A stretch of DNA of 60,507 bases, taken from positions 1 through 60,507 of the IMG/VR virus record IMGVR_UViG_3300030090_004814. One strand, written 5' to 3'. Position numbers and translations under genes: made by a program. The notes beneath the pieces are model-generated. The model was not told the origin of the DNA. It saw only the letters and a program-made list of their open reading frames with translations, and did not search any database. This DNA comes from a virus (lineage: Duplodnaviria; Caudoviricetes). Every line of letters begins with the position of its first letter. Within the stretch, counting starts at the first letter, position 1. This document shows positions 13,932 through 56,509 of the stretch, piece by piece.

Positions 13932-14109
13932 TTTTCTTTTTAAGTCTAGATTCTACGGCTTCAGAAAAAGAATTACGCTTCTTTTTAGGTTTGGTATGAC
14001 CATACCCTTTCTTCTTTAACTCAAGGTGCTTTTTATAAGTACCCGCCCTAACACCTTTACCAGTCTTAGGATCATACATCATGTGTGGTTTGAAATCTTT
14101 CTTTTTCAT
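13921..14109 (-). CDS. Small basic protein
   Basis: 62 aa, Lys-rich, PHMMYDPKTGKG; C-terminal SFSEAVESRL. Confidence 0.7.
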   Translation of the reverse strand: MKKKDFKPHMMYDPKTGKGVRAGTYKKHLELKKKGYGHTKPKKKRNSFSEAVESRLKKKSGY

Positions 14110-14372
14110 TTTTTCTTTTTCTTTTTCTTTTTATAAGAAGATTTTAAGAAAGCTGCACGTTCAGCTTTAGTGTATTTAGCTCTCTGCTTACCTGAAGCAG
14201 TCGCTTTTCGTTTCCTACGAGTTCCAGCAGCATACTCAGCAGAAGATAATGATTTTATAGCAGCCTCAGGTAAATAACGCTCTCCTGTCTCAGAAGACTT
14301 CTTACCCGACTTAGTACGCCATTTCTGTTTAGTCCAAGCTTTTAATGACTTCTGAGGCTTCTTTAAAGACAT
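14106..14372 (-). CDS. Small basic protein (DUF5872-like, C-terminal half)
   Basis: QKSLKAWTKQKWRTK..GERYLP..AIKSLS. Confidence 0.65.
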   Translation of the reverse strand: MSLKKPQKSLKAWTKQKWRTKSGKKSSETGERYLPEAAIKSLSSAEYAAGTRRKRKATASGKQRAKYTKAERAAFLKSSYKKKKKKKK

Positions 14373-14557
14373 TATTTATAGCCTCCACCCCTCTTTTTAT
14401 ACTCTCTAGCAAGCATTTGAGCTTTCCGTGCAGACCATTGTCCTGGTTTGCCACCTTTAGAACCTGCCATAATCTTTTTAAACAAAGCCTTTCGCATTCC
14501 TGGCTTCGTATAATTACCTGCTTTGTTGACTGTTGATTTCTTTTTAGGCATTACCAA
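14372..14557 (-). CDS. Small basic protein (DUF5872-like, N-terminal half)
   Basis: YTKP..GSKGGKPGQWSARKAQ..YK..GGGY. Confidence 0.65.
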   Translation of the reverse strand: MVMPKKKSTVNKAGNYTKPGMRKALFKKIMAGSKGGKPGQWSARKAQMLAREYKKRGGGYK

Positions 14558-14838
14558 AGTTTCTTACAAGCCCAATAACGAGCAGTTAACTTATCTTTAG
14601 CTGTATCACAGTTATGTCTAGATCTAAAATTCTTTCTCCTCTTAGGGTCTTTGTGTTGTCTGAAATCTTTATAATCTCTATGCCCGAAACCAATCTTTTT
14701 AATCTTGTCCCCACTCTTAGCTAAAACAAAAAACTTCTTTTTGCTACCCGAAGGAGCTTTCTTTGGTTTATTGAAACCAGGGAAAGTCTCCCCTAAGTAA
14801 CTAATCTTACCTGAAGGAAGTCTTTTGAACCGTGCCAT
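14551..14838 (-). CDS. Small basic phage protein (DUF5754-like)
   Basis: FG...KDPKRRKNFRSRH.C....TARYW motif. Confidence 0.6.
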   Translation of the reverse strand: MARFKRLPSGKISYLGETFPGFNKPKKAPSGSKKKFFVLAKSGDKIKKIGFGHRDYKDFRQHKDPKRRKNFRSRHNCDTAKDKLTARYWACKKLW

Positions 14839-15860
14839 TATCTATAAAGAGCCGATAAATTTCTATCTTTTCCGATACGGGAAAAAAGATTCCCAAAGAA
14901 ACTTTTAGGTTTGGCTTTTTTTAATGTTGGCATAGGTACTGGTTTTAAAGTTTTACCATCAATAGTGATACCACCTTCCCGCTGAATTATTGGCATATTA
15001 CTCTCAAAACTACTATCTTGCTGAAGCATTGGCATAGGCACTGCCTCTATCGGCTTATCCTCCATGAAGCCTAAGAAATCAGCGGCTCTTTTACTCATCT
15101 CAGCTCGATCCATTTCTTTTTTAAGCATCTCATTCAAAGCTCTGTTCTCTGCCATGCCTTTATAAGCTTCAGCAAATTTTGGGAACCTCTCCATCATACT
15201 CTCAATAATACCTTTTGGTTTATCAGGAGCATCTTCCAAAACAGTCTGACCTGCTGAATCCATGCCCTTGAAACTTTGATTGGCTACTGGAGGAGCGGGA
15301 TACTTTTCCTTCAACTGCTCATTCAAAGCTCTGTTCTCCGCCATGCCTTTATAAGCTTCCGAAAATTTTGGGTACCTCCCCATCATACTCTCAATAATAC
15401 CTTTTGGTTTATCAGGAGCACCCTCATACACCTCTTTTGCATAATCAGGCATTTCCATAGATTCCTCTGCGGGTCCTTCATACACCTCTTTTGCATAATC
15501 AGGCATTTCCATAGACTCTTCTACAGGCTTATCTTGCAAACCTTCATACACATCTTTCGCCTCTTGGGGAATCTCCATAGCAGGTTCTGCCAACTTAGAA
15601 ACAGTAGACTCAATCTTGTCATCCATTTCTTCGGCTTTTGGAGCAGCAGACGCTTTGCTAGCTACAATAGGGGCACCCGCAGAAGCTACTGCTGCTGCTG
15701 ACCTACGGTCCCTACCTACTGGGCGACCACCTCTCGTACTCTTTGAACCAGAAAGTGCAGAAGCTTTACCCCCAAAAAAAGTATCTCTGTCTTGTTGTGA
15801 TCGTGCTGCTGAAGCAGCTAATGGAATTCTCTTTTTACGTCGTTTGATAAATCTAGCCAT
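14838..15860 (-). CDS. Low-complexity, internally repeated protein (possible internal virion protein)
   Basis: Basic N-terminus; EESMEMPDYAKEVYEG x2-3; 38-aa unit APDKPKGIIESMM.R.PKF.EAYKGMAENRALNE x2. Confidence 0.7.
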   Translation of the reverse strand: MARFIKRRKKRIPLAASAARSQQDRDTFFGGKASALSGSKSTRGGRPVGRDRRSAAAVASAGAPIVASKASAAPKAEEMDDKIESTVSKLAEPAMEIPQEAKDVYEGLQDKPVEESMEMPDYAKEVYEGPAEESMEMPDYAKEVYEGAPDKPKGIIESMMGRYPKFSEAYKGMAENRALNEQLKEKYPAPPVANQSFKGMDSAGQTVLEDAPDKPKGIIESMMERFPKFAEAYKGMAENRALNEMLKKEMDRAEMSKRAADFLGFMEDKPIEAVPMPMLQQDSSFESNMPIIQREGGITIDGKTLKPVPMPTLKKAKPKSFFGNLFSRIGKDRNLSALYR

Positions 15861-15868
15861 GACAGGCT

Positions 15869-15897
15869 AAAATAAACTATGTTTGTAAATTATGCAA
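15869..15897 (-). promoter_or_regulatory. sigma70-like promoter
   Basis: TTGCAT-17-TATTTT, 8 nt before ATG 15860. Confidence 0.5.
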
Positions 15898-17130
15898 CTA
15901 ACCTCCGAAAGCTGCCGAAACAGCCTCCTCAAAGGACATATCACCCCTAACCCCACTAGATTTTGCCTTACCATCCCCTACAGGTGCTCCTGACATTGTA
16001 GGTTCAGCCTCCTCATATTCAGCTAATTTTGACAGCAAATTCTCGTTCTCCTTCTGAAGAGTAAAAAATTCTTGGACAACCCTCGGCAACAAGTCCCCGG
16101 CTACACTCCCATAAGCGAAATCAACTGGATGTACAACAGCAGGATCTAATGAAGATGCCTTCTCTTGTATCCCATCTAAATCTACTCCCTCTAGTCCTGT
16201 GATAAAAGGCAACTTCTCCTTCACACGCTGCACCACATTCTTTGAAACAGACTGACGTACACGCACTTTTTCAGCCAACTCATTGTTCATTTTCTCTTCT
16301 TCCAAAGCTTTTGCCTCGTTCAACGCCACATCCACATTCTCATACATCTCCTGCCTCTGCGACAAAATAGGCTCAATGTCCTCAATCATTCTATACACCT
16401 TCGCCTTATCCCTTGCTGACATATTAGGGAAATGTTGATCCAAAGCTTCATCCTGCAATTCAGGATTGTCTAAGGACATTATATCAATAATAACATCCCC
16501 CTCTACATCATAATGATCAGAAATCGCTATTGCCTGATCAAGGATGTTGTTCAAAGGTTCAGAGATCACCTCTTTATACGCCTCAGTTGATTCAAGATCT
16601 GTGAAGGCTTGTTGTTCCTCATACTTTGCCACCTTATCCTTCAAAGCGTCTATATCACGATCCTCAACCAAACTAGCCATCTCCATCAATTGAGATGTCT
16701 GCTCCTTAGTCAACTGCTTCAACTCCTCTAACTCAGAACGATTGTTTTTAAGTTCAGATTTCAACTCCTTAAAGCGATTAGCCGCTTTAGGTGTCCAATC
16801 CTGTAAATTTTCAGTCAGGCTCTCAACAGGCTCTTCGCCTTCGGAAGAAGAATCCTCTGCAACCTCTTGCTTAACTTCTTCGGTGACTTCTTTAACATTT
16901 TTTGCAGCAGCTTGTTCCTCCGCTTGTACTTCAGGCTGCGCCTCCTGTTTTGGCGGCTCCTCTGATACTGGTTCAGGTGTCGGCTCTGGCTTTGGGTTAA
17001 ACGCATTTTCTATTGCATCCATAAAAGATACATTAGATTCTGATGACTGCTCTGGTAAAGATTCCAAAGCATCGGTTGGCTGTTCAGCTACAGGGGCTTC
17101 TACTGTTGCGGTTTCTGAATGTGCATCCAT
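15898..17130 (-). CDS. Capsid scaffolding protein
   Basis: 410 aa, very acidic, coiled-coil, between portal and capsid genes. Confidence 0.75.
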   Translation of the reverse strand: MDAHSETATVEAPVAEQPTDALESLPEQSSESNVSFMDAIENAFNPKPEPTPEPVSEEPPKQEAQPEVQAEEQAAAKNVKEVTEEVKQEVAEDSSSEGEEPVESLTENLQDWTPKAANRFKELKSELKNNRSELEELKQLTKEQTSQLMEMASLVEDRDIDALKDKVAKYEEQQAFTDLESTEAYKEVISEPLNNILDQAIAISDHYDVEGDVIIDIMSLDNPELQDEALDQHFPNMSARDKAKVYRMIEDIEPILSQRQEMYENVDVALNEAKALEEEKMNNELAEKVRVRQSVSKNVVQRVKEKLPFITGLEGVDLDGIQEKASSLDPAVVHPVDFAYGSVAGDLLPRVVQEFFTLQKENENLLSKLAEYEEAEPTMSGAPVGDGKAKSSGVRGDMSFEEAVSAAFGG

Positions 17131-17411
17131 TCTTCTGCTATTTGGTTGTTTGTTGTGTTTGTACTTCTGACTTTTGTCAGTTTATGTAAATCACTGAAAG
17201 CATCACGATACCCAGCGTACCATGCGTGACGGTTGCTGTTAACTCCTGTATCGGTTGAGACTCCTCCATAAGTTGGTCCTGCTGACTCTTTAAGAGTTGC
17301 TGCTGCCGTCTGGAAAGCCTCAGATTCCAGGACAGTTCGCAGTTCTTCAATTCTTTGGACATCTTTAAACCACCTATCCAAAGGAATAGGCAAGGATATT
17401 TTTTTTGGCAT
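17100..17411 (-). CDS. Hypothetical protein (portal-adjacent head assembly)
   Basis: 103-aa helical ORF between portal and scaffold. Confidence 0.6.
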   Translation of the reverse strand: MPKKISLPIPLDRWFKDVQRIEELRTVLESEAFQTAAATLKESAGPTYGGVSTDTGVNSNRHAWYAGYRDAFSDLHKLTKVRSTNTTNNQIAEEWMHIQKPQQ

Positions 17412-17413
17412 AT

Positions 17414-19630
17414 TTAACTCTGTTCACTTAGCTCTCTCGCATTTTTTGCGTCTCTAATGGCTAAGTCCTGCTCAAACTCGGCTTGCTTTATTTCCATGTC
17501 AAGTTTTGCTTTGTCTAAAGCTATCTTATTTTTCACTTCAGCCTCTCGCATTTTCGCTGCCATAGCAGCATCACCCGACTGCTCCTGACCTCCCGCTTCA
17601 GCTTGCTCACGCTTCATCTTCTCAATCTTCTGAGAAGTATTGTAAATCATCTCCTGAGTAAAGTTCAATACCTGCTTCGCTTCACCAACTAACAACTTCT
17701 GCATCGGATCTCCCGCCAATGCCTGAACCGTCTGACTCACATGATCATAAAACGCCTGTAAAGCAGGGAATGCTTGCACTGGGTCAGCAACACCCTCATC
17801 CAACTGCTGCAATAACTGATTCAATGTCGGTAAATGCACCTGCAAATGCGTCGCATGTAACTCATTAGGTACAACAGGTACTGGCTTACCTTCCATCATA
17901 TCCTGATTCTCAAAGTAAGCGATCTTCAAATCAATAGTAGGTCGCTCCTGCTCCTGCTGTGGCATATACCTGTCAGCCAAATCATGACCAACACGAGTTG
18001 CCACAATGTCACGAGTCAAATTCTTACGACCCGTCTCATCAAACTGACCAGACACCGCTTGCAACTCTCGCAATGCAGTAAACCTATTCGCTTGTGAACC
18101 ACTACCAATTGATCTAACGGCTTTAGTCCGACTAATATCCAACGTCTTGATAAATGATTCCTGAACTCCTCGCACTGCACACCGATCATAAAACTCTTTA
18201 ACCGCACCATCCCTACGCTTGTTCTCAACAACCCTACGGACAATCTCCTTCATCAACCTGGTCCAACTCGCATAAAATAAATTCAACGAAGCTCCAGACA
18301 GTCTAGTAGCCACATCCATGTCAGCCACCACCTGCATCTTGTTACGATACGGAGAACTTTGTTGCGAACCATACGTGCTCACTGTATCAGTGTTCAGGGC
18401 TAACTGATTCGTAATATCATTTAAGGCAGGTTGCACTGCCGTGCTCAAATTAGGCACTGCCTTCTCAATAATGTTCACGTTTGGCGACAGCACCGCATAT
18501 GCTCCGTAATACGTGAAACTGAGTTCATCCAATGCCCTTTGGTTCTCAGGCTGTATCATCACAGCCGATCCCAACATCGCACCGTCTATCATCTGACAGC
18601 GCAACCTGTTACTTGTTTGGATGTGATTAAATATACGATGCCCTAATCCTCGAATAGAGTGATAAGTGCCATTCGAGCCAACACCATACGTGAACATCAC
18701 AAACGCTTGTTCAGGCTTCTCATACCTTGAAATCTTCTCGTACATGAACTTCTTAGGCTTGTCCTCCGCACATATAAAATGCGAAACAGACCCATCCATC
18801 TCACGTACCCAAAAATGTAAAACAGATACTGTAGGGTTTTGATAACTGTGATAAAGATCATTGTTCTTTAACTCAGCCTGATAAGACTCCCAATCAGAAG
18901 TGTAGTTCATTCCTGTTCTACCCTGCGTAGTCACATTTTCCATGATTACACGCTTAACTTCCGCAATATCCCAACCAACACTCTTCGCAGCCTTCTCATT
19001 TTTTATGAAGCCAAACAACTCATGCAAATGATACTGCCTACGACCAATCGCTATATCCACAAAGTTTTCATCAGCGGGAGTCTGCCTAGGTATCAAAATA
19101 TCCGCAAAACTACCTACCCTAAACTTCCAGTCATCGGGGGTGTCAAAATAAGCCACTCCCGTACCGTGCTTCACAAAAGTCGTGCACAAACGCAAATAAC
19201 TATTGTGAAACTCAGGCCAACTCCGCAACATATGGGTCAACTCTTCAGAAACAATATCCTCTTGAGTCTTGATCTCTGATCTCTGACCCTGTGTTCCTCT
19301 AACTTCAACAAGTGTTTCTAGTGAAGAATATAAATCCACATAGGCAGATAACGAAATATCCAACAATCTTTGAGCTTCTCCAAAATTCAGATTGGTTTTT
19401 AGACCCTGACCACTAGCATTTAAGCGTTTAGAATCATAGGGACTAGCTCCATCAAACATAGAATCTACCCTCGACCTGTTAATCGAAGAAGCTTCATCCG
19501 CTTTTTGAAGGCTTCTAAAAATGCTTAGAGCACTATTGACATCTTTTAAGCGGCTCTTTTCTGGCTTCCCCTTTTCATCGAGATTTCCTAATTCACTAAG
19601 AGCGTCTATCGAATATTTTTCTGTTGACAT
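17414..19630 (-). CDS. Portal protein
   Basis: 738 aa, helical with C-terminal coiled coil, first gene of the head module. Confidence 0.75.
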   Translation of the reverse strand: MSTEKYSIDALSELGNLDEKGKPEKSRLKDVNSALSIFRSLQKADEASSINRSRVDSMFDGASPYDSKRLNASGQGLKTNLNFGEAQRLLDISLSAYVDLYSSLETLVEVRGTQGQRSEIKTQEDIVSEELTHMLRSWPEFHNSYLRLCTTFVKHGTGVAYFDTPDDWKFRVGSFADILIPRQTPADENFVDIAIGRRQYHLHELFGFIKNEKAAKSVGWDIAEVKRVIMENVTTQGRTGMNYTSDWESYQAELKNNDLYHSYQNPTVSVLHFWVREMDGSVSHFICAEDKPKKFMYEKISRYEKPEQAFVMFTYGVGSNGTYHSIRGLGHRIFNHIQTSNRLRCQMIDGAMLGSAVMIQPENQRALDELSFTYYGAYAVLSPNVNIIEKAVPNLSTAVQPALNDITNQLALNTDTVSTYGSQQSSPYRNKMQVVADMDVATRLSGASLNLFYASWTRLMKEIVRRVVENKRRDGAVKEFYDRCAVRGVQESFIKTLDISRTKAVRSIGSGSQANRFTALRELQAVSGQFDETGRKNLTRDIVATRVGHDLADRYMPQQEQERPTIDLKIAYFENQDMMEGKPVPVVPNELHATHLQVHLPTLNQLLQQLDEGVADPVQAFPALQAFYDHVSQTVQALAGDPMQKLLVGEAKQVLNFTQEMIYNTSQKIEKMKREQAEAGGQEQSGDAAMAAKMREAEVKNKIALDKAKLDMEIKQAEFEQDLAIRDAKNARELSEQS

Positions 19631-19658
19631 GTACCTTTAAATTTAAGCCTTTTTTCAA

Positions 19659-20171
19659 CTACAGCAAGGCGGAATCTTCACCCCACACCTCCTCTACCAA
19701 AGTAGCCACTCTCTTGTTCCTTCTCGTCCCATCAGAATGGTACAAAGTTACATAGGGGTGACCACCACTCATCAAAAACTCACGTAACAAAAAACACTTA
19801 CCAGCATTCCTACCTCTCTTTGGAGGGTCTACACAGTAAATGGCTCCATAAGGCGTGATTACATATCTCGCCCATTCAGGGATCATCCGCACATCAAATT
19901 TCTCAAACACATCTTCTTTGGTGAAATGAGTCTTAGGTTTATTGAACATGGATTCGGCTAGGCGTTCAGAGTCAAATGTCCAAACCCGCCCTTTGTCATT
20001 TCGGATCGTTGCGTACCAGCGAGAGCAAATATATCGCTGTTTCATCTTCTTTAACTTCCCTTGTGGTGATCTTCTGTAAACAAAGCCATTTTTATCTATC
20101 TCGAATGGCGCAGCTTTGGCGATCTTCTTGGTTTCTATATTTTCTGTTACAATTTCAGTAATGTTTTCCAT
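19659..20171 (-). CDS. NUMOD4-like DNA-binding protein (no HNH catalytic motif seen)
   Basis: IPEWARYVITPYGAIY...GHPYVTLY..G.RRNKRVATLV pattern. Confidence 0.5.
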   Translation of the reverse strand: MENITEIVTENIETKKIAKAAPFEIDKNGFVYRRSPQGKLKKMKQRYICSRWYATIRNDKGRVWTFDSERLAESMFNKPKTHFTKEDVFEKFDVRMIPEWARYVITPYGAIYCVDPPKRGRNAGKCFLLREFLMSGGHPYVTLYHSDGTRRNKRVATLVEEVWGEDSALL

Positions 20172-20215
20172 GAGGTGCTTTTTCTTAGTTATTTTCTTAT
20201 TTTCTTATTTATTAT

Positions 20216-20310
20216 CCCCTACCTAAAAACTTCCTTAGAATAGGTTAAGCATATTATTTCATATTGTTGTAAAATGCTAAAGTAACTTATAGAAAGTTTT
20301 TGAGGTGGGG
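20216..20310. repeat. Bipartite conserved element, copy 1, in a hairpin
   Basis: CCCCTACCTAAAAACTT-N12-TTAAGCATATTATTTCATATTGTTGTAAAATGCT; second copy at 42953-43015. Confidence 0.85.
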
Positions 20311-20499
20311 TCAAGAGAAAGTGATTACTTATTTTTGTAAAAACTACCATTTCTGAGCCACAAAATAACCATTCTGAAAAAAGAGCCATTTAGAGCCATT
20401 TTAATTAATTGTTTGTTTTTTGAGCTAATTCCAGCCCTCTCATATGACGAAAATTTTTTCATATAAGGTATATATGTATAGCGAGCTTCGCAGAAAAAT

Positions 20500-20532
20500 C
20501 CTGGCCTCCAGGGTGGGGGTACCCCCTGGCCG
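20500..20532. other. GC-rich palindrome at strand switch (candidate pac/terminus site)
   Basis: GGGGGTACCCCC at 20515-20526 in AT-rich DNA between divergent late and early blocks. Confidence 0.4.
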
Positions 20533-20908
20533 TGCTAAGTTGATTCCTGGTCCATGATCCCCTAACACTTTACTACACTAACACTTGTCAAATGGATCAA
20601 GACTCAATGCTCAATGGCTATAATTTCACAAATTAAATAAATCGATCTTTTTTTATGGATTTGAGAAATTGCTTTTTTGATTGCAAGCTAATAATAAAAA
20701 AAGTGAAATAATGATAATATAATTATAAAAGGCTATTTTCTCAATATGCCTATAATGGCCCATATTTAGCTTATATGACCTTTGAACTATGATTCAGTGG
20801 TTTTATACCCTCTGAGCATTTAAAGAAAAAACCCTATTTTTATAGGGTGAAAATAGTATAAAATTAGTGCTTTTAATTTAGGGTATATGTGCTTTAATTG
20901 TAGGTATC

Positions 20909-21343: not shown

Positions 21344-21368
21344 ACCCTTAAACCATATTAAAGCAATC

Positions 21369-23022: not shown

Positions 23023-23036
23023 AGCAGTATAGATTT

Positions 23037-40137: not shown

Positions 40138-41226
40138 TTATATTCTAGGTGGGATTCCTAATCCTCCTAATCCAGATGATGTTCCTGGAATACCTCTAGA
40201 GCTAGGGTCAAACCTATTTAGTTTTCTTACGCCTGTTATAGGTTGAGTGCTGACTCTATAAAGTAAAGATTGTAACAAGCTTTTTGGTTCTGCAAAAAGA
40301 GCACCACCAATTAAACCTGCCGTACCATCGTCGGTAGGTTTAGGCTGTTGAGTCCAATCAAAAAGTTTTTTATAAGCTTCAGAACCCATAAGTCCCATCG
40401 AAGCAGCTTCTGCTAAGACCATATCAGAAGCATTTTTAAGAGAGTCCCAACTAGCATCATCCCCTACAGAACTTTCAACGAAGCTCTTTAAAGCTGTGAT
40501 CCTGTCTTTTGATAACTCATCTTGTTTCTCTCTTTGTTCTTTTTTGATAGACCCTTTGATAGCTTCTTTAGCTCCTTTAACAATAGGACTAGTAGGTGCC
40601 ATCCCAATTGATTTAGCAGCTTCTTCAACAGCTTCAGGAGACTGAGTAGCTATAGCATCAGAAAATAATTTTACTCCTAAGTTAGATACATTAGGGTCCG
40701 TTGAATTCTTAATAGCCGATGTAGTTATATCTAATAATTTTTTACCTTGGTCTGTTTGTAAAAGAGTAGGATCTGAAAACAACTGCCTATATGCAAAGTT
40801 TGCTTGTTCAGAAGGTGTTGCATCAGATGCAAAGACAGGGCTAAGTCTTTCAGACATGATTGCAAACCTTTGCTCTATCTCTCTATCTTTTTTTAGAGTC
40901 TCTGCTTCACGTTTAATCTTTGCGTTTTGTTGCCTAAGGGCTAATTCTTTCTGAGCAGTATCAAGTTTTCTATAAGAATCACTATATTCTTCTGATTCTA
41001 ATTTATCAAAAGCAGGACCATAATCTTTTCTTATCTGCGATCCATGTTGACTTCCTAAGGACATACTAAATATGTCACTCTTCAAAGCCTGAATATCTTC
41101 TACCCCAAACGAATCTTGTGGATTCGCTGATCTAGCTTGTGCATCTGCTAGAAGAAAATCTGCTTGACGATTTATGTTGTCGTAAGAAGCTTTTTGCCTA
41201 GCACTAAGTGTATCCCTGTACGACAT
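40138..41226 (-). CDS. Putative internal virion/ejection protein
   Basis: 362 aa, helical, upstream of the giant protein. Confidence 0.6.
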   Translation of the reverse strand: MSYRDTLSARQKASYDNINRQADFLLADAQARSANPQDSFGVEDIQALKSDIFSMSLGSQHGSQIRKDYGPAFDKLESEEYSDSYRKLDTAQKELALRQQNAKIKREAETLKKDREIEQRFAIMSERLSPVFASDATPSEQANFAYRQLFSDPTLLQTDQGKKLLDITTSAIKNSTDPNVSNLGVKLFSDAIATQSPEAVEEAAKSIGMAPTSPIVKGAKEAIKGSIKKEQREKQDELSKDRITALKSFVESSVGDDASWDSLKNASDMVLAEAASMGLMGSEAYKKLFDWTQQPKPTDDGTAGLIGGALFAEPKSLLQSLLYRVSTQPITGVRKLNRFDPSSRGIPGTSSGLGGLGIPPRI

Positions 41227-41227
41227 C

Positions 41228-42829
41228 TTAGCGTCTTCTACCTCCTCCGATTAAGAAATCTTTAAGATCCGATAATCCCTCACCAACTGGATCTAAAGCT
41301 TCTTCTTTAATAGCTGTCGCAACACTACGTTTTTTCTTTCTTTCAGCGGCTTCTTTTTGGAAAAGCCTATCTAACTCCGCATCTTCAGCTTCTTCTCTTT
41401 TCTTAGCTTCTTCTGCTCTCCTCTCTTCTTCTTCTTTAACTTTTTCATCCACTTCAGCTAGTTTCTTTTGGTATTCTTCTTGATCTTTTTCATACCTCTC
41501 TTGCTCTTCTGCTTGTAGCATATCAAACTCTGCCTTTTCTGCTTCAATTGCTTTTAACTCATCGGCAGCAGATAATGGTTTTTGTTCTATTGTAGCATTT
41601 TTAGTAGCATCAAAAGCAGCAAGTTTGTCATCCGGTAACTTCTTTTCAGCAGGTTTTCCTTGTTTAGGAGGCTCTCCTTGTGCGGGTGATTTCCTATTCA
41701 TTATGTCTCTAAAGAGTGCAATATCTTGAGGGCCTAAATTTTCACCCATCGCTATCTTTCTTTCTAATATCTTACTCTGTGTAAAATCTAACCCTTTCCG
41801 ACTTTGTTCAGCATCTCCTTTTTTAAAGACTTCTGCTTTATAATCTTTTATTTGTTGCTGTTTAGCTCTGCCTTTTGTGTTACGGACAACCCTATCAAAA
41901 TCTCTCTCATCAAAAGATGAATCCCCTAGTTTTCTACCTTCTCTCAAAATCCTAGCTTTTTCCTCAGGGTTTTTACTGAAGTACATGGGATCTGCTGCAC
42001 CTTCTCTAGTCATTCTAGAAATGATCTGATTACCTAACTCTCTTCGTCTATCTACATTAGATAAAGTCTCAGCCTGACTGTCTTCAAAGGCTCTCGTCCT
42101 CGCATCTTCTAAGATCTTTTCCATATAATCTTTACGAGCTTGAGACATTTCTTCAGGAGCTTCAGGTTCAACAAGACCCTCCATCTGCTGCGATCTAAAA
42201 GCTTTTAAATCTAAAGGCTCTGCTGAAGGAATACCTAAAGCTGAAGCATCTTCAGATACTTTAGGTAAAGGCTCTCCTCCTTGCAAAAGAGTCGCACCTA
42301 TTCTTGTTCTAGGACGAGTTCTACTTCCGCTTCTAAGCATTTCCGTAAACCTATTTAATCTAGTTGGAGCTGCTTTAGGTGCAGAAGAAGCAACACGATC
42401 TATCGGGGTGTCTCTTCTAGCCCCTAAAAGTTGATTGTCAGTTCTACCTCTGCCAGATGTTTGTCTAGATCTAGGTAATCGTTGTCTTGGAGGTCTTGTG
42501 GTAGCTCCTGCTCGACCAAAAGCTCCTTCCCCCATTTTGCCAAAGCTTCCTTTTTGGTTTCTAACAGCAGTATCTACCCCTTCTCCTGCAAGTTTCCCAG
42601 TCCCTTTGGTTGTGCCTTTAGCTGCTCCTGTAGCAGCAGTTTTACCTAATTTTCCTAGGGTTACTGCTTGACCTATGCCAGGTAAAGCTGCTGAAGCTCT
42701 TAAAACACCTGAGGCAACATCACCTCTTTGAAAAGAAATACCTGCATTTATTAAGTCAACAAAGTTGCCAACTATGGGAGTCATACCCGCTACGTCTAAA
42801 CCTGTTTGTAATTTGTCAAGCCAAGCCAT
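41228..42829 (-). CDS. Putative ejection protein with N-terminal pre-toxin TG-like domain
   Basis: LDVAGMTPIVGNFVDLINAGI...GD.......AALPGIG; charged coiled-coil C-terminus. Confidence 0.6.
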   Translation of the reverse strand: MAWLDKLQTGLDVAGMTPIVGNFVDLINAGISFQRGDVASGVLRASAALPGIGQAVTLGKLGKTAATGAAKGTTKGTGKLAGEGVDTAVRNQKGSFGKMGEGAFGRAGATTRPPRQRLPRSRQTSGRGRTDNQLLGARRDTPIDRVASSAPKAAPTRLNRFTEMLRSGSRTRPRTRIGATLLQGGEPLPKVSEDASALGIPSAEPLDLKAFRSQQMEGLVEPEAPEEMSQARKDYMEKILEDARTRAFEDSQAETLSNVDRRRELGNQIISRMTREGAADPMYFSKNPEEKARILREGRKLGDSSFDERDFDRVVRNTKGRAKQQQIKDYKAEVFKKGDAEQSRKGLDFTQSKILERKIAMGENLGPQDIALFRDIMNRKSPAQGEPPKQGKPAEKKLPDDKLAAFDATKNATIEQKPLSAADELKAIEAEKAEFDMLQAEEQERYEKDQEEYQKKLAEVDEKVKEEEERRAEEAKKREEAEDAELDRLFQKEAAERKKKRSVATAIKEEALDPVGEGLSDLKDFLIGGGRRR

Positions 42830-42952: not shown

Positions 42953-43044
42953 CCCCTATCTAAAAACTTTATAAAACCCTATTAAGCATATTATTACATA
43001 TTGTTGTAAAATGCTTTTCTTGTGTTAGGGATTTTTTTAAAGTT
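42953..43044. repeat. Bipartite conserved element, copy 2, in a hairpin
   Basis: CCCCTATCTAAAAACTT-N12-TTAAGCATATTATTACATATTGTTGTAAAATGCT. Confidence 0.85.
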
Positions 43045-44806
43045 GATCTGTTGCTAAAATAGTAGAAAGTTTCTTCAAACTTCTTCCTTTTGAAAAAGTT
43101 CCATCTGAATTTTTCGTAGGAGGGTCAACTGCAACCAATCCGTGCCTCTGCCTGGCTAAATCTAAACACAAAAAAGCAGCATCCGCTAAGTCTGGTGATT
43201 GCCCAAAACGAGCTTTATAGTCAGGTTTTGACTCTAATTTCATGCGTAGCGTAGTGCTTTTTACCAAATCATAGTTCCTGCTAGTTATTTCTTTAGCTAA
43301 ATCACTTGATATACCAAACAATTGCTTTGTCCTACATAACTCTTTGCCAACAAACCAAAGCTCACTTACTCTGTTAAAGTAAAGCTCATACCCTGTTAGC
43401 TTACTTTTAGAACTAACCTTCTTATCTGATGCCTTCCCACCAAAAGAAACACGAAGAATCCCCTCACCAAACTCTGCCGCTAGTATGTCAGCCAAAGGAG
43501 AACCCGCACCTGTCGAGTCAATTGCAAGATCATATGGTTGAACCCCCCTCTTTTGACACGCCTCTTTCACCTGCTGAACAATCTGATAAGATCGGGGGAC
43601 GGCTTTGTTGGTGGCATCGTCAGTAAGTTGAACAGATTCTCCCAACTCACAAACAAATTGACCTGTTATATCTACTCCAACTTTACCAAAGTATAAGATA
43701 GATCTGTCACCATTGTTAGTAAATGCAGGGTCAAATCCCGCAATCGACGTAGGTTTGCTTTTCCATTTAACCTGATTCATGGACCCTGATCTTATGATCT
43801 CTGATTCACTGTACACAGTTTCAGCTTCATCTGAGTCAAAGAATACTGCTCTGACCATTCGCATGTACCCTCTACTCTCAGGACCTAGCAACTCAGCATC
43901 CTCTTCAATTTTTTGTGCAGTAGGTAGCCAAGGGTATAAGTCTTCTCCTGCTAAGACATTAGGAGATCTTTCTCCATCGAGTCTTATATACGTCCCTCCC
44001 CATTTAGTTTCCCATGTATCATCTGTTTCTACGTTAACAGATTCCCAACCTCCACCTTCTTTAGGAGTACTCCACACACCGAAAGCATCGAACCTACTTG
44101 ATGGGTTACTCATACCAACTAGCGAGAAGTAAGGGTTTTTTGACAAGTTTGATAGCCCTGCTTGTAGAATAGCTTCGCTTAATTCACTAAGCTCGTCTGC
44201 AATCAAGAAGACTTTTTTCTGCTTAATACCTATAAACTTACCAACCGCTTCTCTTGTTTTTGATTTTTCAGCAGCAATCAAAGATAATCCAGCTCTTTCT
44301 ACTAAGTTCCCTTGTTCATTTATATAAGCGACATTACCGATTGAATCTCTAATCTTAAAAGGAGCACCTTCTAAAACAGAGAGTAAACTGATCACTGAAC
44401 CCCAAATCCTTTTCCGTGCTTCTCTGAGCGTGGTAGAAGTGAGTAGGATTAATGTTTCATGTGGAGCAGCCATCCAATTGATAATACCCCACGCTGCCAT
44501 TGTATGTGACTTACCACTAGATGCAGCACCTCCTACAGCAACATATTTATTTTTGAGACAAGTCCTTACTATTTCTTCTGCCCAAGGATGTCTTACCATT
44601 AAAGGTTCAGGAACATCAGAGTTATTCCAAAGCTCGTCACAAAGTCTCCAAAAATAATATTCTCTAGCAGAGTCTTTTTTATGTTTAGAAAAACCGTACA
44701 GGAGTGCAGAGATCAGATTACATGGCGGTATTTTCATACCACCGACATCCATCATTTTTGTTTTAGCATCTATAGTCGGCTCATAAATAATTTTAGTTGG
44801 AGTCAT
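43037..44806 (-). CDS. terL: Terminase large subunit
   Basis: Walker A GAASSGKS, Walker B LIADE, coupling motif MSNP, RNase H-like GFDPA...D and SPDLADA. Confidence 0.9.
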   Translation of the reverse strand: MTPTKIIYEPTIDAKTKMMDVGGMKIPPCNLISALLYGFSKHKKDSAREYYFWRLCDELWNNSDVPEPLMVRHPWAEEIVRTCLKNKYVAVGGAASSGKSHTMAAWGIINWMAAPHETLILLTSTTLREARKRIWGSVISLLSVLEGAPFKIRDSIGNVAYINEQGNLVERAGLSLIAAEKSKTREAVGKFIGIKQKKVFLIADELSELSEAILQAGLSNLSKNPYFSLVGMSNPSSRFDAFGVWSTPKEGGGWESVNVETDDTWETKWGGTYIRLDGERSPNVLAGEDLYPWLPTAQKIEEDAELLGPESRGYMRMVRAVFFDSDEAETVYSESEIIRSGSMNQVKWKSKPTSIAGFDPAFTNNGDRSILYFGKVGVDITGQFVCELGESVQLTDDATNKAVPRSYQIVQQVKEACQKRGVQPYDLAIDSTGAGSPLADILAAEFGEGILRVSFGGKASDKKVSSKSKLTGYELYFNRVSELWFVGKELCRTKQLFGISSDLAKEITSRNYDLVKSTTLRMKLESKPDYKARFGQSPDLADAAFLCLDLARQRHGLVAVDPPTKNSDGTFSKGRSLKKLSTILATDQL

Positions 44807-46390: not shown

Positions 46391-47683
46391 ATGAAAGCAC
46401 TCTACCCAAAGCAAGGCACCGCTGCCGACTTTTTTATTAACACCCTTAGTAATGGTAAATCAACTATTGATACTTCTAGTGTAGGTACAGGTAAAACTGT
46501 AGTCGCTAGCCACATATCAAAAGAGTTAGGAAGACCAGTTGCTGTTATTTGCCCAAAAGCTGTCATCCCATCATGGGAAAGAGAGTTAGAAGAATTTGGT
46601 GTAAAACCTTTATTTGTATTGAATTACGAAAAGATAAGGACTGGTAATACAGAGTTTATGACTAAGCGAGGTAAGAAGATAATGACCTGGCATTTACCTG
46701 AAGACACTATCATCTTAATGGACGAGATACATAAAGCAAAAGGTCCTTATACTCAAAATGCACAACTATTAATATCTTTGATTACGCAAAAGTTTTTGGT
46801 GCACGGCATGAGTGCTACTGCATGTGAAGACCCTACAGAAATGAGAGCTATAGGGTACATGTTAGGTCTACATAGTTTGAATAAATCTGTTTCTCCAAAA
46901 AGGAGTTGGTACTCATGGATGTTATCTAATGGTTGTCTACAAGACCAATGGAAGACTTGGAAGTTAGCTAGTAGAAAAAAGTTAAAATCTGTTAAAGAAA
47001 CAATTTATGGGGTTACTGGTTTTAAGTTAACTATTGAAGACTTCCCTGATTCATTTAGAGATAACCGAGTTTTTGTAGAGCCAATACAATTCAATGCTCC
47101 TAATAAAATTATAAAAGCTTACGAGGACTTAGGGGTTACTCCAGACATTGTACAACAATTTATTGAGCACGGTAGTGTTGAGAACAGTGACTTTGATATT
47201 GTGAATATCCTACGTGCTAGAATGCTCGCTGAGAGCTACAAGGTTTTAGATCTAGCGGATATGTCAACTGATCTGTACCACCAAGGTAACTCTGTTGTGA
47301 TCTTTGTGAACTTCAAAGAAACGATTGATACCCTTTGCCAAAAACTAGATTGTGGCAGGATTGATGGTGGGCAAACTGCTCAAGAAAGACAGAAAGAGAT
47401 TGATGATTTTCAATCTGATAAAAGAAGAATACTTGCTGTTAATACAGCAGCAGGAGGCACAGGACTGTCTCTGCATGATGTGAAAGGCAAACACCCTAGA
47501 GTTAGTTTGATTAGCCCTTCTTTCTCTGCTAAAAACCATCTACAAGTCCTAGGAAGAATACACAGGAACGGAGCAAAGTCAGATGCTGTACAAAAGATAT
47601 TAGTGGCTGCGGGATCTATAGAAGAGAACGTAATGAAAGCCATAGAAAGAAAACTTAAAAACTTAGAAACATTACATGGATAA
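46391..47683 (+). CDS. SF2 (SNF2-like) helicase
   Basis: GTGKT, DEIH, SAT, GGTGLSL, Q.LGRIHR. Confidence 0.9.
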   Translation: MKALYPKQGTAADFFINTLSNGKSTIDTSSVGTGKTVVASHISKELGRPVAVICPKAVIPSWERELEEFGVKPLFVLNYEKIRTGNTEFMTKRGKKIMTWHLPEDTIILMDEIHKAKGPYTQNAQLLISLITQKFLVHGMSATACEDPTEMRAIGYMLGLHSLNKSVSPKRSWYSWMLSNGCLQDQWKTWKLASRKKLKSVKETIYGVTGFKLTIEDFPDSFRDNRVFVEPIQFNAPNKIIKAYEDLGVTPDIVQQFIEHGSVENSDFDIVNILRARMLAESYKVLDLADMSTDLYHQGNSVVIFVNFKETIDTLCQKLDCGRIDGGQTAQERQKEIDDFQSDKRRILAVNTAAGGTGLSLHDVKGKHPRVSLISPSFSAKNHLQVLGRIHRNGAKSDAVQKILVAAGSIEENVMKAIERKLKNLETLHG

Positions 47684-48794
47684 CCAACCAGATCATGGAA
47701 GTAGAGGACACGCAGAGTTTTCACCATCTAGTCTTAAATATGTAGCCACTTGTCCTGGCTTCAAAGGGCGAAGTGGTACTAACGCTGCTGCTGAAAAAGG
47801 AACACGGATACATGAAGCATTAGAGATTAGAGATCCTTCAGCATTACACGATGAAGAGGAGCTTGAGATTTATGAGCAGATTGTAAAAGATGAAGCTGAG
47901 TTCATGCAGGAAATTATTGGGGATGAGGAATATGAAGAGCACAATGAAATGCTCACTCACGTACAGTTAAATGGGACTAGTACATGGGGGACTTGTGATC
48001 GTTTAATACTGTATGCGGATAAAGCGATTATGGGCGATTACAAAACTGGTATATCAGTTATTGATTCACCTAGAGACAATTGGCAAGCTAAAGCATATGC
48101 TTTGGGAGCTTTTCAAAAGTTTAAACAAATTAAGGAAATTACTTTCGTATTTTATGTTCCTGTTAGGAATGAAGTTCTACATGATGTATTTAAGCGTGAA
48201 GAAATGGAGGAGATGACCCATGAACTTTCTTTAGTTATCTTACAAGGCGAAAAAATTAGACCACAGTGGGAGTATGGTAAACCTGCTATAGCCGATGTTA
48301 ACCCAACTGTTAATTGCAGATTCTGTGCTTTTGAAGCTAAGTGCCCTGCTTTAGGTGCGATAGCTATACAAGTAGCTAAAAAGGTAGCCGACCATTCTAT
48401 TCCTGATACAGACATATCTGATCCTGATGATCCAAAGACTCTTGAAGAACTTTGGGCAATCGCAAAGATAGTAACTAACTGGGCAACACGTATAAAAGCC
48501 AAAGCTATTACTATGGCTAAAGAAGGGCATGAGTTTCCTTCATTGAGATTGAAGTCAATGGGGGCTACAAAAAAATGTAACGACAATAAAAAATTAGCTG
48601 AAATTGCTAAGAAGCATAACTTGTCGGATGAAGAATTACTCACACTTGCAACTTTTCCTTTGCAAAAGATTGCAACTGCTGTAAGTAAACAAGCCCCTGA
48701 TGGGGAGAAAGGACAAGCAAAACAGGATTTTTTGAATGAATTGCTTGAAGAAAAAATTGTCGATGTCTCCGAAACAAGGTACACATTGACGTAA
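47676..48794 (+). CDS. Cas4-like PD-(D/E)XK exonuclease (DUF2800-like)
   Basis: SPSS..CP, GT..H, GTCD, DYKTG, Q...Y, CRFC.....C. Confidence 0.85.
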   Translation: MDNQPDHGSRGHAEFSPSSLKYVATCPGFKGRSGTNAAAEKGTRIHEALEIRDPSALHDEEELEIYEQIVKDEAEFMQEIIGDEEYEEHNEMLTHVQLNGTSTWGTCDRLILYADKAIMGDYKTGISVIDSPRDNWQAKAYALGAFQKFKQIKEITFVFYVPVRNEVLHDVFKREEMEEMTHELSLVILQGEKIRPQWEYGKPAIADVNPTVNCRFCAFEAKCPALGAIAIQVAKKVADHSIPDTDISDPDDPKTLEELWAIAKIVTNWATRIKAKAITMAKEGHEFPSLRLKSMGATKKCNDNKKLAEIAKKHNLSDEELLTLATFPLQKIATAVSKQAPDGEKGQAKQDFLNELLEEKIVDVSETRYTLT

Positions 48795-48813
48795 ATTAAA
48801 ATAAAATATAAAA

Positions 48814-49682: not shown

Positions 49683-49714
49683 TTAGCCCAAGGAGTTGAG
49701 GGACTCCTTCCTTA

Positions 49715-49766
49715 CCCTAGTGGTCTTGGTTTTTCTTGCTTTCTACCAAGATCACTAGGGACTTTT
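49715..49766 (+). terminator. Hairpin upstream of polymerase
   Basis: CCCTAGTGGTCTTGGT/ACCAAGATCACTAGGG 16-bp stem then ACTTTT. Confidence 0.6.
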
Positions 49767-49772
49767 ACCCCT

Positions 49773-53713: not shown

Positions 53714-53979
53714 TTGAAGATATAAATGATTTTTTACAAGAGATTGTTCCTGGTGAAGCCGATCAGGTATACACCATTGATAACCTTTCTTATGGTTTTA
53801 TTGGGGTAACAGATGATTTGCGAGCTATTTATAGTCTTGAAAAATGTGTTGAGAAGTATCACCCAAAAGAAAATAAAGACTCAGCAGAAGGGTTAGTTTG
53901 GGAAGAGTTTACACAACACATTGATCAAGCTATTTCTGAGGGGTTTGACCCACCTCTTTTAATAAACACTATAGCTTGA
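53710..53979 (+). CDS. Hypothetical protein, probable paralog of 45371-45643
   Basis: GFIG.....AIYS..KC...P.LI pattern. Confidence 0.55.
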   Translation: MIEDINDFLQEIVPGEADQVYTIDNLSYGFIGVTDDLRAIYSLEKCVEKYHPKENKDSAEGLVWEEFTQHIDQAISEGFDPPLLINTIA

Positions 53980-54502
53980 GTATATCTTTTGGTTTGTTTA
54001 AAGAACTTATTTCTAAATGCAATCCTGAAGATTTAAACTTAAATCCATCATTATCCGTATCCCCTCTGTTTACGTAGTGGGCAGTGCTCAAGAGTTTTTT
54101 AGTAGGTAGCCAACCAACTAACCAGGCATACATGAGATCCCTTCTAACTCGTGTAAAAAAGTAAATGTCGTTTTGAAACTTAAAGTTTTTAGAGCAATTT
54201 ACAAAAGCACTATAGTTTGGTTGTGGCTCTGAGCTACATGTTTTAGACTTCACCTCAATTTCTTTTTTCCGGAATCTTATATCATATGTGTATGAAGTGT
54301 CTCCTGTGTATTTACTTCTAGGTAAATACTTGTTAACTACAACCTCTCCTAAACAACCTACCATCCTACCTAATCCTCGTGTATATGAATTAGGCAAAAC
54401 ACCCATATCTTTAGCTCTTTGATGTGCTAAAGAGATATCTTCGCTTGTCGGTTCATATCCTATAAAATCACCAACCTCTATAAATTTTTTACTTTTGCTC
54501 AT
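53969..54502 (-). CDS. Putative PD-(D/E)XK nuclease-like protein
   Basis: G.LGE...YD......IEVKSK. Confidence 0.55.
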   Translation of the reverse strand: MSKSKKFIEVGDFIGYEPTSEDISLAHQRAKDMGVLPNSYTRGLGRMVGCLGEVVVNKYLPRSKYTGDTSYTYDIRFRKKEIEVKSKTCSSEPQPNYSAFVNCSKNFKFQNDIYFFTRVRRDLMYAWLVGWLPTKKLLSTAHYVNRGDTDNDGFKFKSSGLHLEISSLNKPKDILKL

Positions 54503-55028
54503 CTAGTAAGCGGATTCTTTCAGAAGCTGCTTCGTCGAAAGGCATCTTCAATGTTTTGGCGTTGCCTAAATCAACCCAAGGTTTTATGTTCCTTTCCATT
54601 CTTGGAGCGATCCCTGTTCCTTGTTTTAAGGATTTTCTATAATCGTCATTATTAAGAAGTTCTTTAGCTGCTGCATAATACTTACCCTCTTTAAATAACC
54701 CAATAGCTTTAGGTGATTGTCTGTAATCCCCTCTAAAATCTAAATCTATTAAAGATATTTTAATAGGGTTTGGAAAAGCATCAAAAGCACCTTTACCTAA
54801 ATCTTTATCTATATCATTTTTGACATAGTCTATCTTCTCTTTAATATCCACATTGAAAAGTTGTTTCGCTTTAGCTTCTGTTATCTCATTTAATTTTTCC
54901 CCCTTCTTTATCAAATGACCGATGCCAATAGTTGGGTTGCCTTCTGAATCCTTATACTTTTTCAAACGAAGTCCCTCGTTAGCTTTTATATATGAATAAT
55001 AATCAGGCTGTTTGTTTTCTTCACTCAT
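54489..55028 (-). CDS. Phage lysozyme (GH24-like)
   Basis: EGLRLKKYKD..G.PTIGIGHL catalytic E-D-T motif. Confidence 0.85.
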   Translation of the reverse strand: MSEENKQPDYYSYIKANEGLRLKKYKDSEGNPTIGIGHLIKKGEKLNEITEAKAKQLFNVDIKEKIDYVKNDIDKDLGKGAFDAFPNPIKISLIDLDFRGDYRQSPKAIGLFKEGKYYAAAKELLNNDDYRKSLKQGTGIAPRMERNIKPWVDLGNAKTLKMPFDEAASERIRLLDEQK

Positions 55029-55323
55029 CTTTATATTTTTTTAAAAAGGTTTCCCAGGCAGGGAAGAATATTTCTTCCATACAACGTACAACAGCCTCTT
55101 GATCATAATTCTCAAGCCATCCTACTCCACTTATAAGTAAGCTAGCCTCCATCATTTCGTGACGGATAGTGTTTAAAAGAGTTTTACCTTTAAGGTTTTT
55201 GTTTATCTCAATTGTTTTTTTATCGTGCAGGTATAACCCAAAATCGGGACTGTCCCCATTAAAAGGAACTACAACAAGTTTTATCCTTTGTCCTGCAATC
55301 GATATAGATTTTGGAAGTTGCAC
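55021..55323 (-). CDS. Zincin-like small protein
   Basis: TI.IN.......T..HEMMEA...E (HExxE variant); probable GTG start. Confidence 0.6.
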   Translation of the reverse strand: MQLPKSISIAGQRIKLVVVPFNGDSPDFGLYLHDKKTIEINKNLKGKTLLNTIRHEMMEASLLISGVGWLENYDQEAVVRCMEEIFFPAWETFLKKYKDE

Positions 55324-55324
55324 A

Positions 55325-55879
55325 TTACCACCTCTCTGAAAGGTCTTTATAAAGTTCAATTCCCGCTGCCATTGCCGTAGCAATACCCTCCATATTTTTT
55401 AGAGCAAGATCCCAATCCTCCTCATTACTACCAAAAAAAGGCTCTGCGATTAATGCTGGACAATGAGTTAACCTTAAAAATCCTGCTCCTCTGCTCCCTT
55501 TCCGCCTGGGCCGAATACCTCTGCTCCTTAATTGTGGGAAGCAGTCTTCAAATGAATCTCTTAAAGCACGGGCAAATAGCCTTCCTTTCTCTGAAGTGGT
55601 CCAATACAGCCACTCATGCCCTGTGGCTGATGGAGTAGCTGCATTAAAATGTAGTTCTATGGCTGCTTCTACTCCGTCATTACGCAGAGTCTTTGCTAGC
55701 CACTTCATCGCACTCCAATAACTGTTTCCTTTATAGGTTGAGTAGATTTTGTGCTTTACCTTTAACCTATCGCTGATCATATCAGCTAGTTGGGAATTAT
55801 AATCCCATTCAGTAACTCCAGTTACAGAGGCTGCTCCTGAGTTATTTGGTCGTGAGTGTCCTACGCATATTGCTATCAT
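55325..55879 (-). CDS. N-acetylmuramoyl-L-alanine amidase (Amidase_3 endolysin)
   Basis: GH, E, ELHFNA, G.E, P.LI.EPFF.SN. Confidence 0.9.
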   Translation of the reverse strand: MIAICVGHSRPNNSGAASVTGVTEWDYNSQLADMISDRLKVKHKIYSTYKGNSYWSAMKWLAKTLRNDGVEAAIELHFNAATPSATGHEWLYWTTSEKGRLFARALRDSFEDCFPQLRSRGIRPRRKGSRGAGFLRLTHCPALIAEPFFGSNEEDWDLALKNMEGIATAMAAGIELYKDLSERW

Positions 55880-55891
55880 TTTTACTGGGCA

Positions 55892-56509
55892 CTACTTTTT
55901 GTCTTTTCTTTTCTTGTCTCTAAAAGACATCCTTATCTTCTTTAATCTTACTGGGTCTGATATATTACTCGTATAACTATCTATTGCGGAACCATCCTCA
56001 TTCAAAATTAATCTCCCTTCCGTTCCCATCGTTGGATCACCTTCAGACAATATCTCCTGGCCAATTATATTTAGTCTAGTTCTTCCTGTATTATCTTTCC
56101 CTTTAAAAGAAATATCATCTAAAGGAGTAGCTTCATCTCTAAACCCACTTAAATCTTTACCACTCCTCTCAGCACCCCTAAGACCACTAAAATCTTTTTC
56201 ACTAGTAATTGAGTCTAACCCCTCTTCAACGGCTTCTTCAAAAGACAAAGGTGTTATATAAAGAGGTTTTTCTTTTTTAGAAGGAAAAGATCCAGAATTA
56301 GATGTAGTTTTTTCTTCAGTGACCTGAATAATACCTCGTCTAACAAGGTCTTTTTCCGCATCGTCAAACTCCTTAATCTGTTTACGGATGGCTTCTCTAG
56401 TACCTTTATCAAGTTTATCTAGAGAGCTTTGAGAAAGACCTTTAATATAATCTATTTTCTTTTTATTACTCGCATAGATTTTTTTAATTTCTTCTAATTC
56501 GTTAGGCAT
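55892..56509 (-). CDS. Hypothetical protein with SFEEAV motif
   Basis: 205-aa charged protein; KDFSGLR/KDLSGFR repeat. Confidence 0.65.
   Translation of the reverse strand: MPNELEEIKKIYASNKKKIDYIKGLSQSSLDKLDKGTREAIRKQIKEFDDAEKDLVRRGIIQVTEEKTTSNSGSFPSKKEKPLYITPLSFEEAVEEGLDSITSEKDFSGLRGAERSGKDLSGFRDEATPLDDISFKGKDNTGRTRLNIIGQEILSEGDPTMGTEGRLILNEDGSAIDSYTSNISDPVRLKKIRMSFRDKKRKDKK

Follow-up and report, generated by a model that had tools for sequence, protein, structure and literature searches.

A ten-residue motif shared by both ends of a putative phage scaffold and by unrelated proteins: a possible head-loading tag

Few routes are understood by which extra proteins enter the heads of tailed phages: those of T4 and P1, nested protease-scaffold genes, and the mimicry seen between 80alpha and SaPI1. 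In T4 the capsid targeting sequence is removed by the head protease. Encapsulin cargo peptides, which are short, C-terminal and carried on a flexible linker, dock enzymes inside an HK97-fold shell. The 80alpha scaffold ends in 16 residues that fold into an amphipathic helix of 11 residues and a hook lying beside the N-arm helix of the capsid protein, and the unrelated SaPI1 protein CpmB binds the 80alpha capsid by the same device and at the same site (PMC5644958, available part). Proteins, foreign ones included, can be loaded into heads for delivery to the host by no more than a short terminal peptide, as the T4 internal proteins and P1 DarB show (PMC9024508, available part), and in engineered P22 cargo fused to the coat-binding part of the scaffold fills the capsids with enzymes (PMC9962691, available part). 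Here we describe a motif of about ten residues that may serve as such a tag in an uncultured marine tailed phage (record IMGVR_UViG_3300030090_004814). The window, i.e. the whole stretch of DNA analysed, measures 60,507 bases, has direct terminal repeats and is a complete virus record (completeness rating 100%). The motif stands near each end of a 410-amino acid (aa) acidic, scaffold-like protein and recurs in unrelated proteins of the same genome.

An earlier note on this DNA had reported five stretches fitting the expression [SP]F-x-[ED]-A-[VIA]-xxx-[FLI], and had proposed that late proteins mimic a coat-binding helix of the scaffold in order to be packaged. Translation of the minus strand reproduced all five exactly, in residues as well as in coordinates. 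Two of them belong to the scaffold-like protein (15898..17130, minus strand), which is encoded between the portal and the capsid gene: SFMDAIENAF near the N-terminus (16999..17028, residues 35-44) and SFEEAVSAAF at the C-terminus (15907..15936, residues 399-408 of 410). The others, likewise on the minus strand, are SFSEAVESRL (13942-13971), five residues before the end of a 62-aa basic protein (13921..14109); the degenerate PFDEAASERI (54513-54542) in the C-terminal extension (about 25 aa) of a 179-aa GH24 phage lysozyme (54489..55028); and SFEEAVEEGL (56216-56245), internal to a 205-aa protein of the lysis region (55892..56509). In a set of 80 non-overlapping open reading frames (ORFs; 19,395 aa) the expression matched five times, against a mean of 0.03 and a maximum of 1 in 300 within-protein shuffles, so the comparison with a shuffled proteome came out in favour of the motif. 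The pattern SF.[ED]A[VI] gave four matches where shuffles of the same set predicted 0.06; the shortened core [SP]F.[ED]A matched the DNA polymerase twice as well. Since these expressions had been fitted after seeing the data, an independent test was made with a hidden Markov model (HMM) whose sole input was the scaffold ends of relatives (39 unique 11-mers, window rows excluded).

The relatives were 35 virus loci obtained by a portal search (portal identity 65-79%); 32 of them reach the scaffold gene and the other three end just past the portal. For whole-genome comparison the window and 17 relatives (18 genomes, 1,325 proteins, 333,942 aa) were clustered into families. Database homologues numbered 385 for the scaffold-like protein, 555 for the capsid protein and 983 for the 62-aa protein, which marks the lineage as frequent in marine data; the best 120 were examined for the first and the last of these. 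In the window the HMM gave the two scaffold copies 13.8 and 11.9 bits. The best scores outside the scaffold were those of the 205-aa protein (6.8 bits) and the 62-aa protein (6.6 bits), and all others were at most 3.0. When the non-scaffold proteome of the window was shuffled (n=200), one shuffle held a single match of at least 6.5 bits and none held two. With the threshold for non-scaffold matches set at >=5.5 bits, the 18 genomes contained 11 of them, compared with a total of four over six controls (five shuffles and one reversal; control maximum 7.3 bits), and the 35 head-module loci contained 20 matches, in 14 loci, compared with 3, 0 and 5 in three shuffles.

Conservation of the motif at both ends of the scaffold-like protein, which the earlier note had put forward as a check, was complete in the scaffolds read (33 of 33: 32 relatives and the window). 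In all 33 one copy is found some 30-45 residues into the protein, and the other stops 1-4 residues short of the C-terminus. Among the best 120 of the 385 homologues the regular expression detected the N-terminal copy in 118 and the C-terminal copy in 116; the misses comprised a truncated ORF, one copy beyond the scan window and four copies with A or G at position 1. The family is present in all 18 genomes and in 32 of the 35 loci. Alignment revealed a layout of a motif near the N-terminus, a P/E-rich linker, a well conserved core, a variable linker and a motif at the extreme C-terminus, the linkers around both copies varying freely. The consensus is [STD]-F-x-[ED]-[ASR]-[ILV]-x-x-A-[LF], or more broadly [STD]-F-x-[ED]-[ASR]-[ILV]-x-x-[AR]-[LFM], with E, D, N, S, A or T, often an acidic residue, at position 7. 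This residue pattern suggests an amphipathic helix with S, T or D as N-cap and a hydrophobic face formed by positions 2, 5, 6, 9 and 10. The 17 aligned scaffolds also have in common a box, AEYExAEPxMSG (window 15940-16020, minus strand; residues ~371-397), which precedes the linker leading to the C-terminal copy.

Outside the scaffold the motif was found in at least six unrelated families, in which it is kept while the rest of the protein diverges. It lies 1-15 residues from the C-terminus or internally; an N-terminal position was seen only in an acidic family encoded next to the capsid gene and in the lysozymes of two distant genomes, G036 and G037 (see below). In members of the 62-aa family a conserved N-terminal domain (FKPHMMY...) is joined to the tag by a lysine-rich linker whose length varies widely, and a short tail follows. 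Among the best 120 of 983 homologues the tag was recognised in 93 by the regular expression and in 78 at >=5.5 bits by the scaffold-only HMM. All seven homologues in the loci are tagged, one of them doubly, as are six of the 11 members in the 18 genomes. Most homologues, tagged or not, end in G-Y or S-G-Y, and the K/A-rich linker recalls DNA-binding tails; judging by composition, one might guess that the protein condenses DNA. The gene belongs to a cassette for small basic proteins (window 13921-14838, minus strand: 62 aa; 88 aa, phrog_14910; 95 aa, DUF5754) whose place and orientation shift among the relatives. Cassette-type genes also neighbour tagged lysozymes: a homologue of the 88-aa protein in G018 and a DUF5754-like protein in G036/G037.

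A second small family, of 84-86 aa and with a distinct N-terminal domain, is tagged in both of its genome members, and further cases occur in the loci. The 205-aa protein has a single homologue among the 17 relatives (G001, 172 aa), which carries SFQESVERGL, so that the tag is present in two of two; by eye, nothing but the motif is recognisably conserved in a region where the two members otherwise differ. G012, G028 and G032 encode acidic proteins adjacent to the capsid gene, with the tag in their disordered-looking N-terminal part, and locus L027 encodes a similar acidic tagged protein (adjacency to the capsid gene was established for the first three). One of these acidic proteins, of 285 aa (G012:C1:34623-35480), bears two or three tag-like copies in tandem, DSFSDIVEKRA, DSFEARVRDGM and DIFKARVRDGM, as if valency had been raised.

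The lysozyme was assigned by Pfam PF00959 (47.3 bits, cut-off 22.3; E 3.3e-12). Its copy of the motif is too degenerate for the scaffold-only HMM, which misses it, and was accepted because homologues have clear copies at the same place: SFKEAVEERI, SYKEAVEERI, TYNEAVEERF and SFAERVEQRV. The tag is clear in all three relatives having the gene, down to 34% identity, that is, in four of four genomes with the window included. Close database lysozymes are also tagged (five full-length proteins and one 125-aa fragment), whereas four more distant ones stop right after the enzyme domain and have no extension, which indicates that the tag is an added extension, as the earlier note had described it. A second family of wall hydrolases, of 277-374 aa with a C-terminal domain resembling that of VgrG3 of type VI secretion systems (T6SS), has the tag as its last residues in both members, and one of these VgrG3-like muramidases also contains two LysM domains. 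By contrast, the Amidase_3 endolysin (window 55325-55879, minus strand), which was identified by family match and is present in all 18 genomes, gave no motif match above 2.1 bits. The tagged enzymes are accessory hydrolases of two folds, and the universal Amidase_3 is untagged. In the window the untagged amidase and the tagged lysozyme lie within 53969-55879 (minus strand), separated by a 120-aa ORF. Downstream of the wall-lytic genes is that of a 177-aa protein which all 18 genomes have and a homologue of which looks, by eye, like a PD-(D/E)xK nuclease.

The motif, then, exists; it is enriched and conserved, it is modular, and it stands at protein ends. It is very probably a genuine element shared by the scaffold-like protein and by proteins unrelated to it.

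The presumed docking partner is the major capsid protein (464 aa; 10881..12275, minus strand). The earlier note had assigned the capsid to this gene, and AlphaFold2 and Foldseek agreed in giving it an HK97 fold. A model built from 18 close sequences was unusable (predicted local distance difference test, pLDDT, 45.8); with 129 diverse homologues of the 555 a pLDDT of 83.7 was reached. In this model a spine helix is seen together with a long helix in the N-arm (residues 9-33), and alignments showed that the N-arm (residues 18-42) is near-invariant in the lineage. Complex prediction for the capsid and 62-aa proteins scored 0.00 against a mark of 0.32, in a run without controls, and speaks neither for nor against binding. 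The best Foldseek matches were the capsids of N4 and of the N4-like DEV, B2 and Moo19 (E 1.8e-10, template modelling (TM) score 0.46-0.55). The likeness extends to gene order: 170 aa-portal-103 aa-410 aa-capsid in the window mirrors gp60-gp59-gp58-gp57-gp56 of N4. No sequence similarity to N4 was detected (hhalign probability 0.3 for gp57, BLASTP E 1.3 for the portal with gp59). With regard to the Schitoviridae, the window thus has the N4-type capsid fold and head-gene order and lacks sequence similarity in the core proteins. N4 gp57 (405 aa; N4 record 15084-16301) has a motif of its own near each end, MSDE[ED][IF][LM].[ML]P at residues 15-24 and 391-400, with acidic or P/T-rich linkers between these copies and the core, and may be regarded, on its position and these features, as a candidate for the N4 scaffold. 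A 2024 study of DEV, an N4-like phage (PMC11445570, available part), calls capsid assembly poorly understood and the N4 scaffolding protein unidentified; a 2026 paper on N4 (PMC13434306) does not mention gp57 in its available part, and our literature search found no paper on gp57 as scaffold.

More distant lineages were reached by rendering a conserved capsid peptide as a degenerate DNA pattern, which yielded 25 loci, 20 of them with capsid homologues, and four records were read; two distant single proteins used as queries for a locus search found nothing. In G036/G037, whose capsid is far more divergent, a 427-430-aa protein encoded after the portal has SLGEALN[SA]AL near its N-terminus and GFLEALEKS[MI] at its C-terminus, and in G039/G040 a 358-aa protein has comparable end helices. 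Both the twin-ended layout and the overall form of the motif are therefore retained. The best HMM match in G036/G037 was to the first residues of a GH24 lysozyme of 309/340 aa (Pfam E 1e-36 and 5e-39), whose gene directly follows that of a virion-type protein of about 3,000 aa. The score, 5.8 bits, is a modest one that 4 of 100 shuffles also attained, and the two lysozymes are orthologous and so count as a single event. The lysozyme of this pair would be a third independent wall hydrolase with the helix, here at the opposite end of the protein. PHROGs assigned no capsid family to 24 distant capsid homologues. One of the distant homologues, P0214, contains an inserted domain matching Ig-like/virion-structural PHROGs, a common capsid decoration.

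The explanation that we favour, with moderate confidence and from sequence evidence, is that the motif is a procapsid-docking tag common to scaffold and cargo, that is, a head-loading tag. We infer that it binds the capsid protein, and that the tagged proteins are packaged and used later. The helix of about ten residues would be a portable docking device, of which the scaffold holds one at each end on a flexible tether. With these ends the scaffold would hold capsid-protein subunits, or the scaffold core, during procapsid assembly. Unrelated accessory proteins would have gained a single copy at one end, would take the site of a scaffold end and so be built into the procapsid. They would stay in the head and might be delivered with the DNA, a wall-cutting enzyme, for example, serving entry. 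A wider form of this proposal, which we put forward only tentatively, is that of plug-and-play head loading: any protein gaining the ten-residue tag would be carried to the next host, the device would have been used repeatedly for wall enzymes of at least two folds and for lysine-rich proteins that may help DNA packing, and the twin-ended design would extend to N4.

The description of the carriers as late proteins held for 19 of the 21 non-scaffold carriers, which lie in structural or lysis neighbourhoods; two homologues of the exonuclease, a replication protein, also score as carriers. The split of 11 structural, eight lysis-region and two replication carriers, against residue backgrounds of 76%, 5% and 19%, is not decisive. 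Scaffold mimicry, similarly, stood in so far as a conserved modular element is found on the scaffold ends and on unrelated proteins; it did not stand for a pair of KF[SA]EAYKGM copies in a 340-aa protein (14838..15860, minus strand). Both copies are present, but they are not members of the motif, score below -1 bit with the HMM and sit in two copies of an internal repeat.

A number of observations weigh against a head-loading tag. The 340-aa protein had to be rejected as a carrier on account of these low scores and repeat-borne copies. The exonuclease homologues carry RDFMDAVEAAD (10.4 bits) and RSFLDAVENNG (5.8 bits); in the window the C-terminal tail of this enzyme (47676-48794) has DFLNELLEEK (48726..48755, plus strand) as the corresponding stretch, either a counter-example or a chance likeness. 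This tail lies past residue 339, where the DUF2800 match stops, and is conserved in its family together with downstream residues of its own; it may be a chance likeness or a helix with a wider interaction role. No family was found for the 410-aa protein in Pfam, PHROG or PDB sequences, and it is position, composition and synteny that suggest a scaffold. (The Atlas gave a weak lead to Phage-scaffold clusters, with a score of 0.90, 106 shared features and PF09306 in 37% of one cluster.) Of the 11 proteins that the 18 genomes contribute to the 62-aa family, five are untagged (G008, G012, G016, G018, G031). The lysozyme occurs in only three of 35 relatives, so any role of it must be accessory. The cassette and the head genes are on opposite strands in several relatives, and their shared expression is therefore not assured. 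Scaffold and cargo copies do not covary consistently: R is found at position 5 in both in G018, and G009 and G032 mismatch. The motif is absent from the giant virion-type protein of the window (described below), the most obvious candidate for packaging. Finally, the gp57 motif was found in no other N4 ORF (two observed against 0.01 expected, both in gp57), so the sharing of a tag is not general to the twin-ended design.

Some of these points would suit a different partner. The helix might bind another shared protein, such as the portal, a host chaperone or hub, or the 103-aa protein encoded between portal (17414-19630) and scaffold (17100..17411, minus strand; the position of N4 gp58), and tagged proteins would then be recruited or regulated and not packaged. 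The 103-aa protein had no family match, is conserved (34 of 35 loci, 17 of 18 genomes) and its gene adjoins that of the scaffold; the likeness of the exonuclease tail would sooner be expected of a general interaction motif than of a head tag, and the opposite orientation of some cassettes points the same way. Against such a partner, the solved precedent is scaffold-to-capsid, the capsid N-arm is near-invariant, as a docking site should be, and two copies per scaffold molecule would suit the abundance of the capsid protein more than that of 12 portal subunits. We consider this alternative unlikely.

If the helix does dock on the capsid, the small tagged proteins might modulate or compete in assembly, acting on timing or size or excluding rivals, instead of being cargo. 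SaPI1 CpmB, which has the helix and hook of the 80alpha scaffold and competes for the same capsid site (PMC5644958, available part), does precisely this, and the commonest carriers here are very small and encoded between the scaffold and capsid genes. The carriers are, however, encoded by the phage and not by a satellite, and three tagged peptidoglycan hydrolases are hard to square with assembly control, which makes this explanation improbable.

Acidic amphipathic helices arise easily, and a few families could resemble the scaffold ends by chance, with no function in common. The exonuclease tail, where a similar helix is an integral part of another family, and the weak copy in the window lysozyme would agree with this; the enrichment over shuffles, the retention of the motif in at least six families where its flanks diverge and its terminal placement after variable linkers would not, and we regard coincidence as very improbable. 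In T4 and phiKZ-type phages the scaffold and internal proteins have a common cleavage consensus for the head-maturation protease. The least probable explanation is that the motif is such a recognition or cleavage site, for although it occurs in scaffold and putative internal proteins and position 7 is often acidic, that position is variable, a cut 1-4 residues from the scaffold end would remove almost nothing, two sites in 410 residues cannot break up the scaffold, and family scans found no peptidase among the 80 ORFs of the window (a very divergent one could escape them).

Few of the 80 window ORFs are covered by known families (Pfam, PHROG). In addition to the genes mentioned, matches were obtained for a large terminase (43037-44806; Pfam/PHROG-type match), a Pam3 gp28-type holin (56936-57100), a family A DNA polymerase, a helicase, the PD-(D/E)XK/DUF2800 exonuclease, a primase-like DUF5906 protein and a C5 DNA methylase. 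A tblastn search with capsid, portal, scaffold and terminase found no match in 50,697 records of cultured phages, and searches of PDB sequences with the capsid and scaffold profiles and the giant protein gave nothing meaningful. The 340-aa repeat protein, of which no homologue is present in the records of the 17 relatives, is basic at its N-terminus and contains three PDYAKEVYEG-like units as well as a unit of about 63 aa that occurs twice. In the region 13500-17500 Tandem Repeats Finder reported a TTTCTT run only. The giant protein of 2649 aa (32166-40115, minus strand; 2335-4775 aa in relatives) is encoded downstream of the terminase, after two ORFs at 40138-41226 and 41228-42829, and had no match in Pfam, PHROGs or PDB sequences. 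With the two mid-sized proteins it recalls, in size and setting, the virion RNA polymerase and the two ejection proteins of N4. The ORFs at the two ends of the record (3-5099 and 57852-60506, minus strand) are open toward the record ends and probably form one protein of ~2,583 aa, tail-fibre/depolymerase-like, across the terminal repeat.

If the head-loading explanation is right, the motif would be a natural counterpart, of about ten residues, of the engineered P22 and encapsulin loading tags, and it would define a class of virion-carried wall hydrolases that can be recognised from sequence alone. For N4, gp57 with its two end motifs would be a concrete candidate for the missing scaffold. We found no paper on scaffold-end tags on lysozymes or on this system in the literature searched, supplements lying outside the search.

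Among the described systems the 80alpha scaffold and CpmB come closest, for there, too, the C-terminal helix of a scaffold is found on an unrelated small protein. The present case differs in that the carriers belong to the genome of the phage itself and to at least six families, enzymes included, in that it lacks the RIIK hook and has a second, N-terminal scaffold copy, and in that it is known from sequence. Compared with scaffolds of the P22 gp8/80alpha type, the 410-aa protein has the gene position and a predicted, conserved C-terminal helix and has no match to a described family. It resembles N4 gp57 in gene position, length, acidic linker and a motif near each end, next to a capsid whose fold is the closest solved one, but there is no sequence similarity, and the N4 motif is a different one, unshared with other N4 ORFs. 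From the N-terminal loading signals of T4 and P1 the tag is set apart by its mostly C-terminal position and by copying the scaffold's own ends; the N-terminal placement of T4-type targeting is confined to the acidic family and the G036/G037 lysozymes, and its signal-removing protease was not found in 80 ORFs. Like encapsulin cargo peptides it is a short C-terminal tag following a variable linker, lysine-rich or other, yet its motif is different and it occurs in a tailed phage, whose genome encodes portal, terminase, DNA polymerase and lysis proteins, and not in a DNA-free compartment. In comparison with the engineered P22 capsids, finally, the fusions seen here are apparently natural, and the fused part measures only about ten residues.

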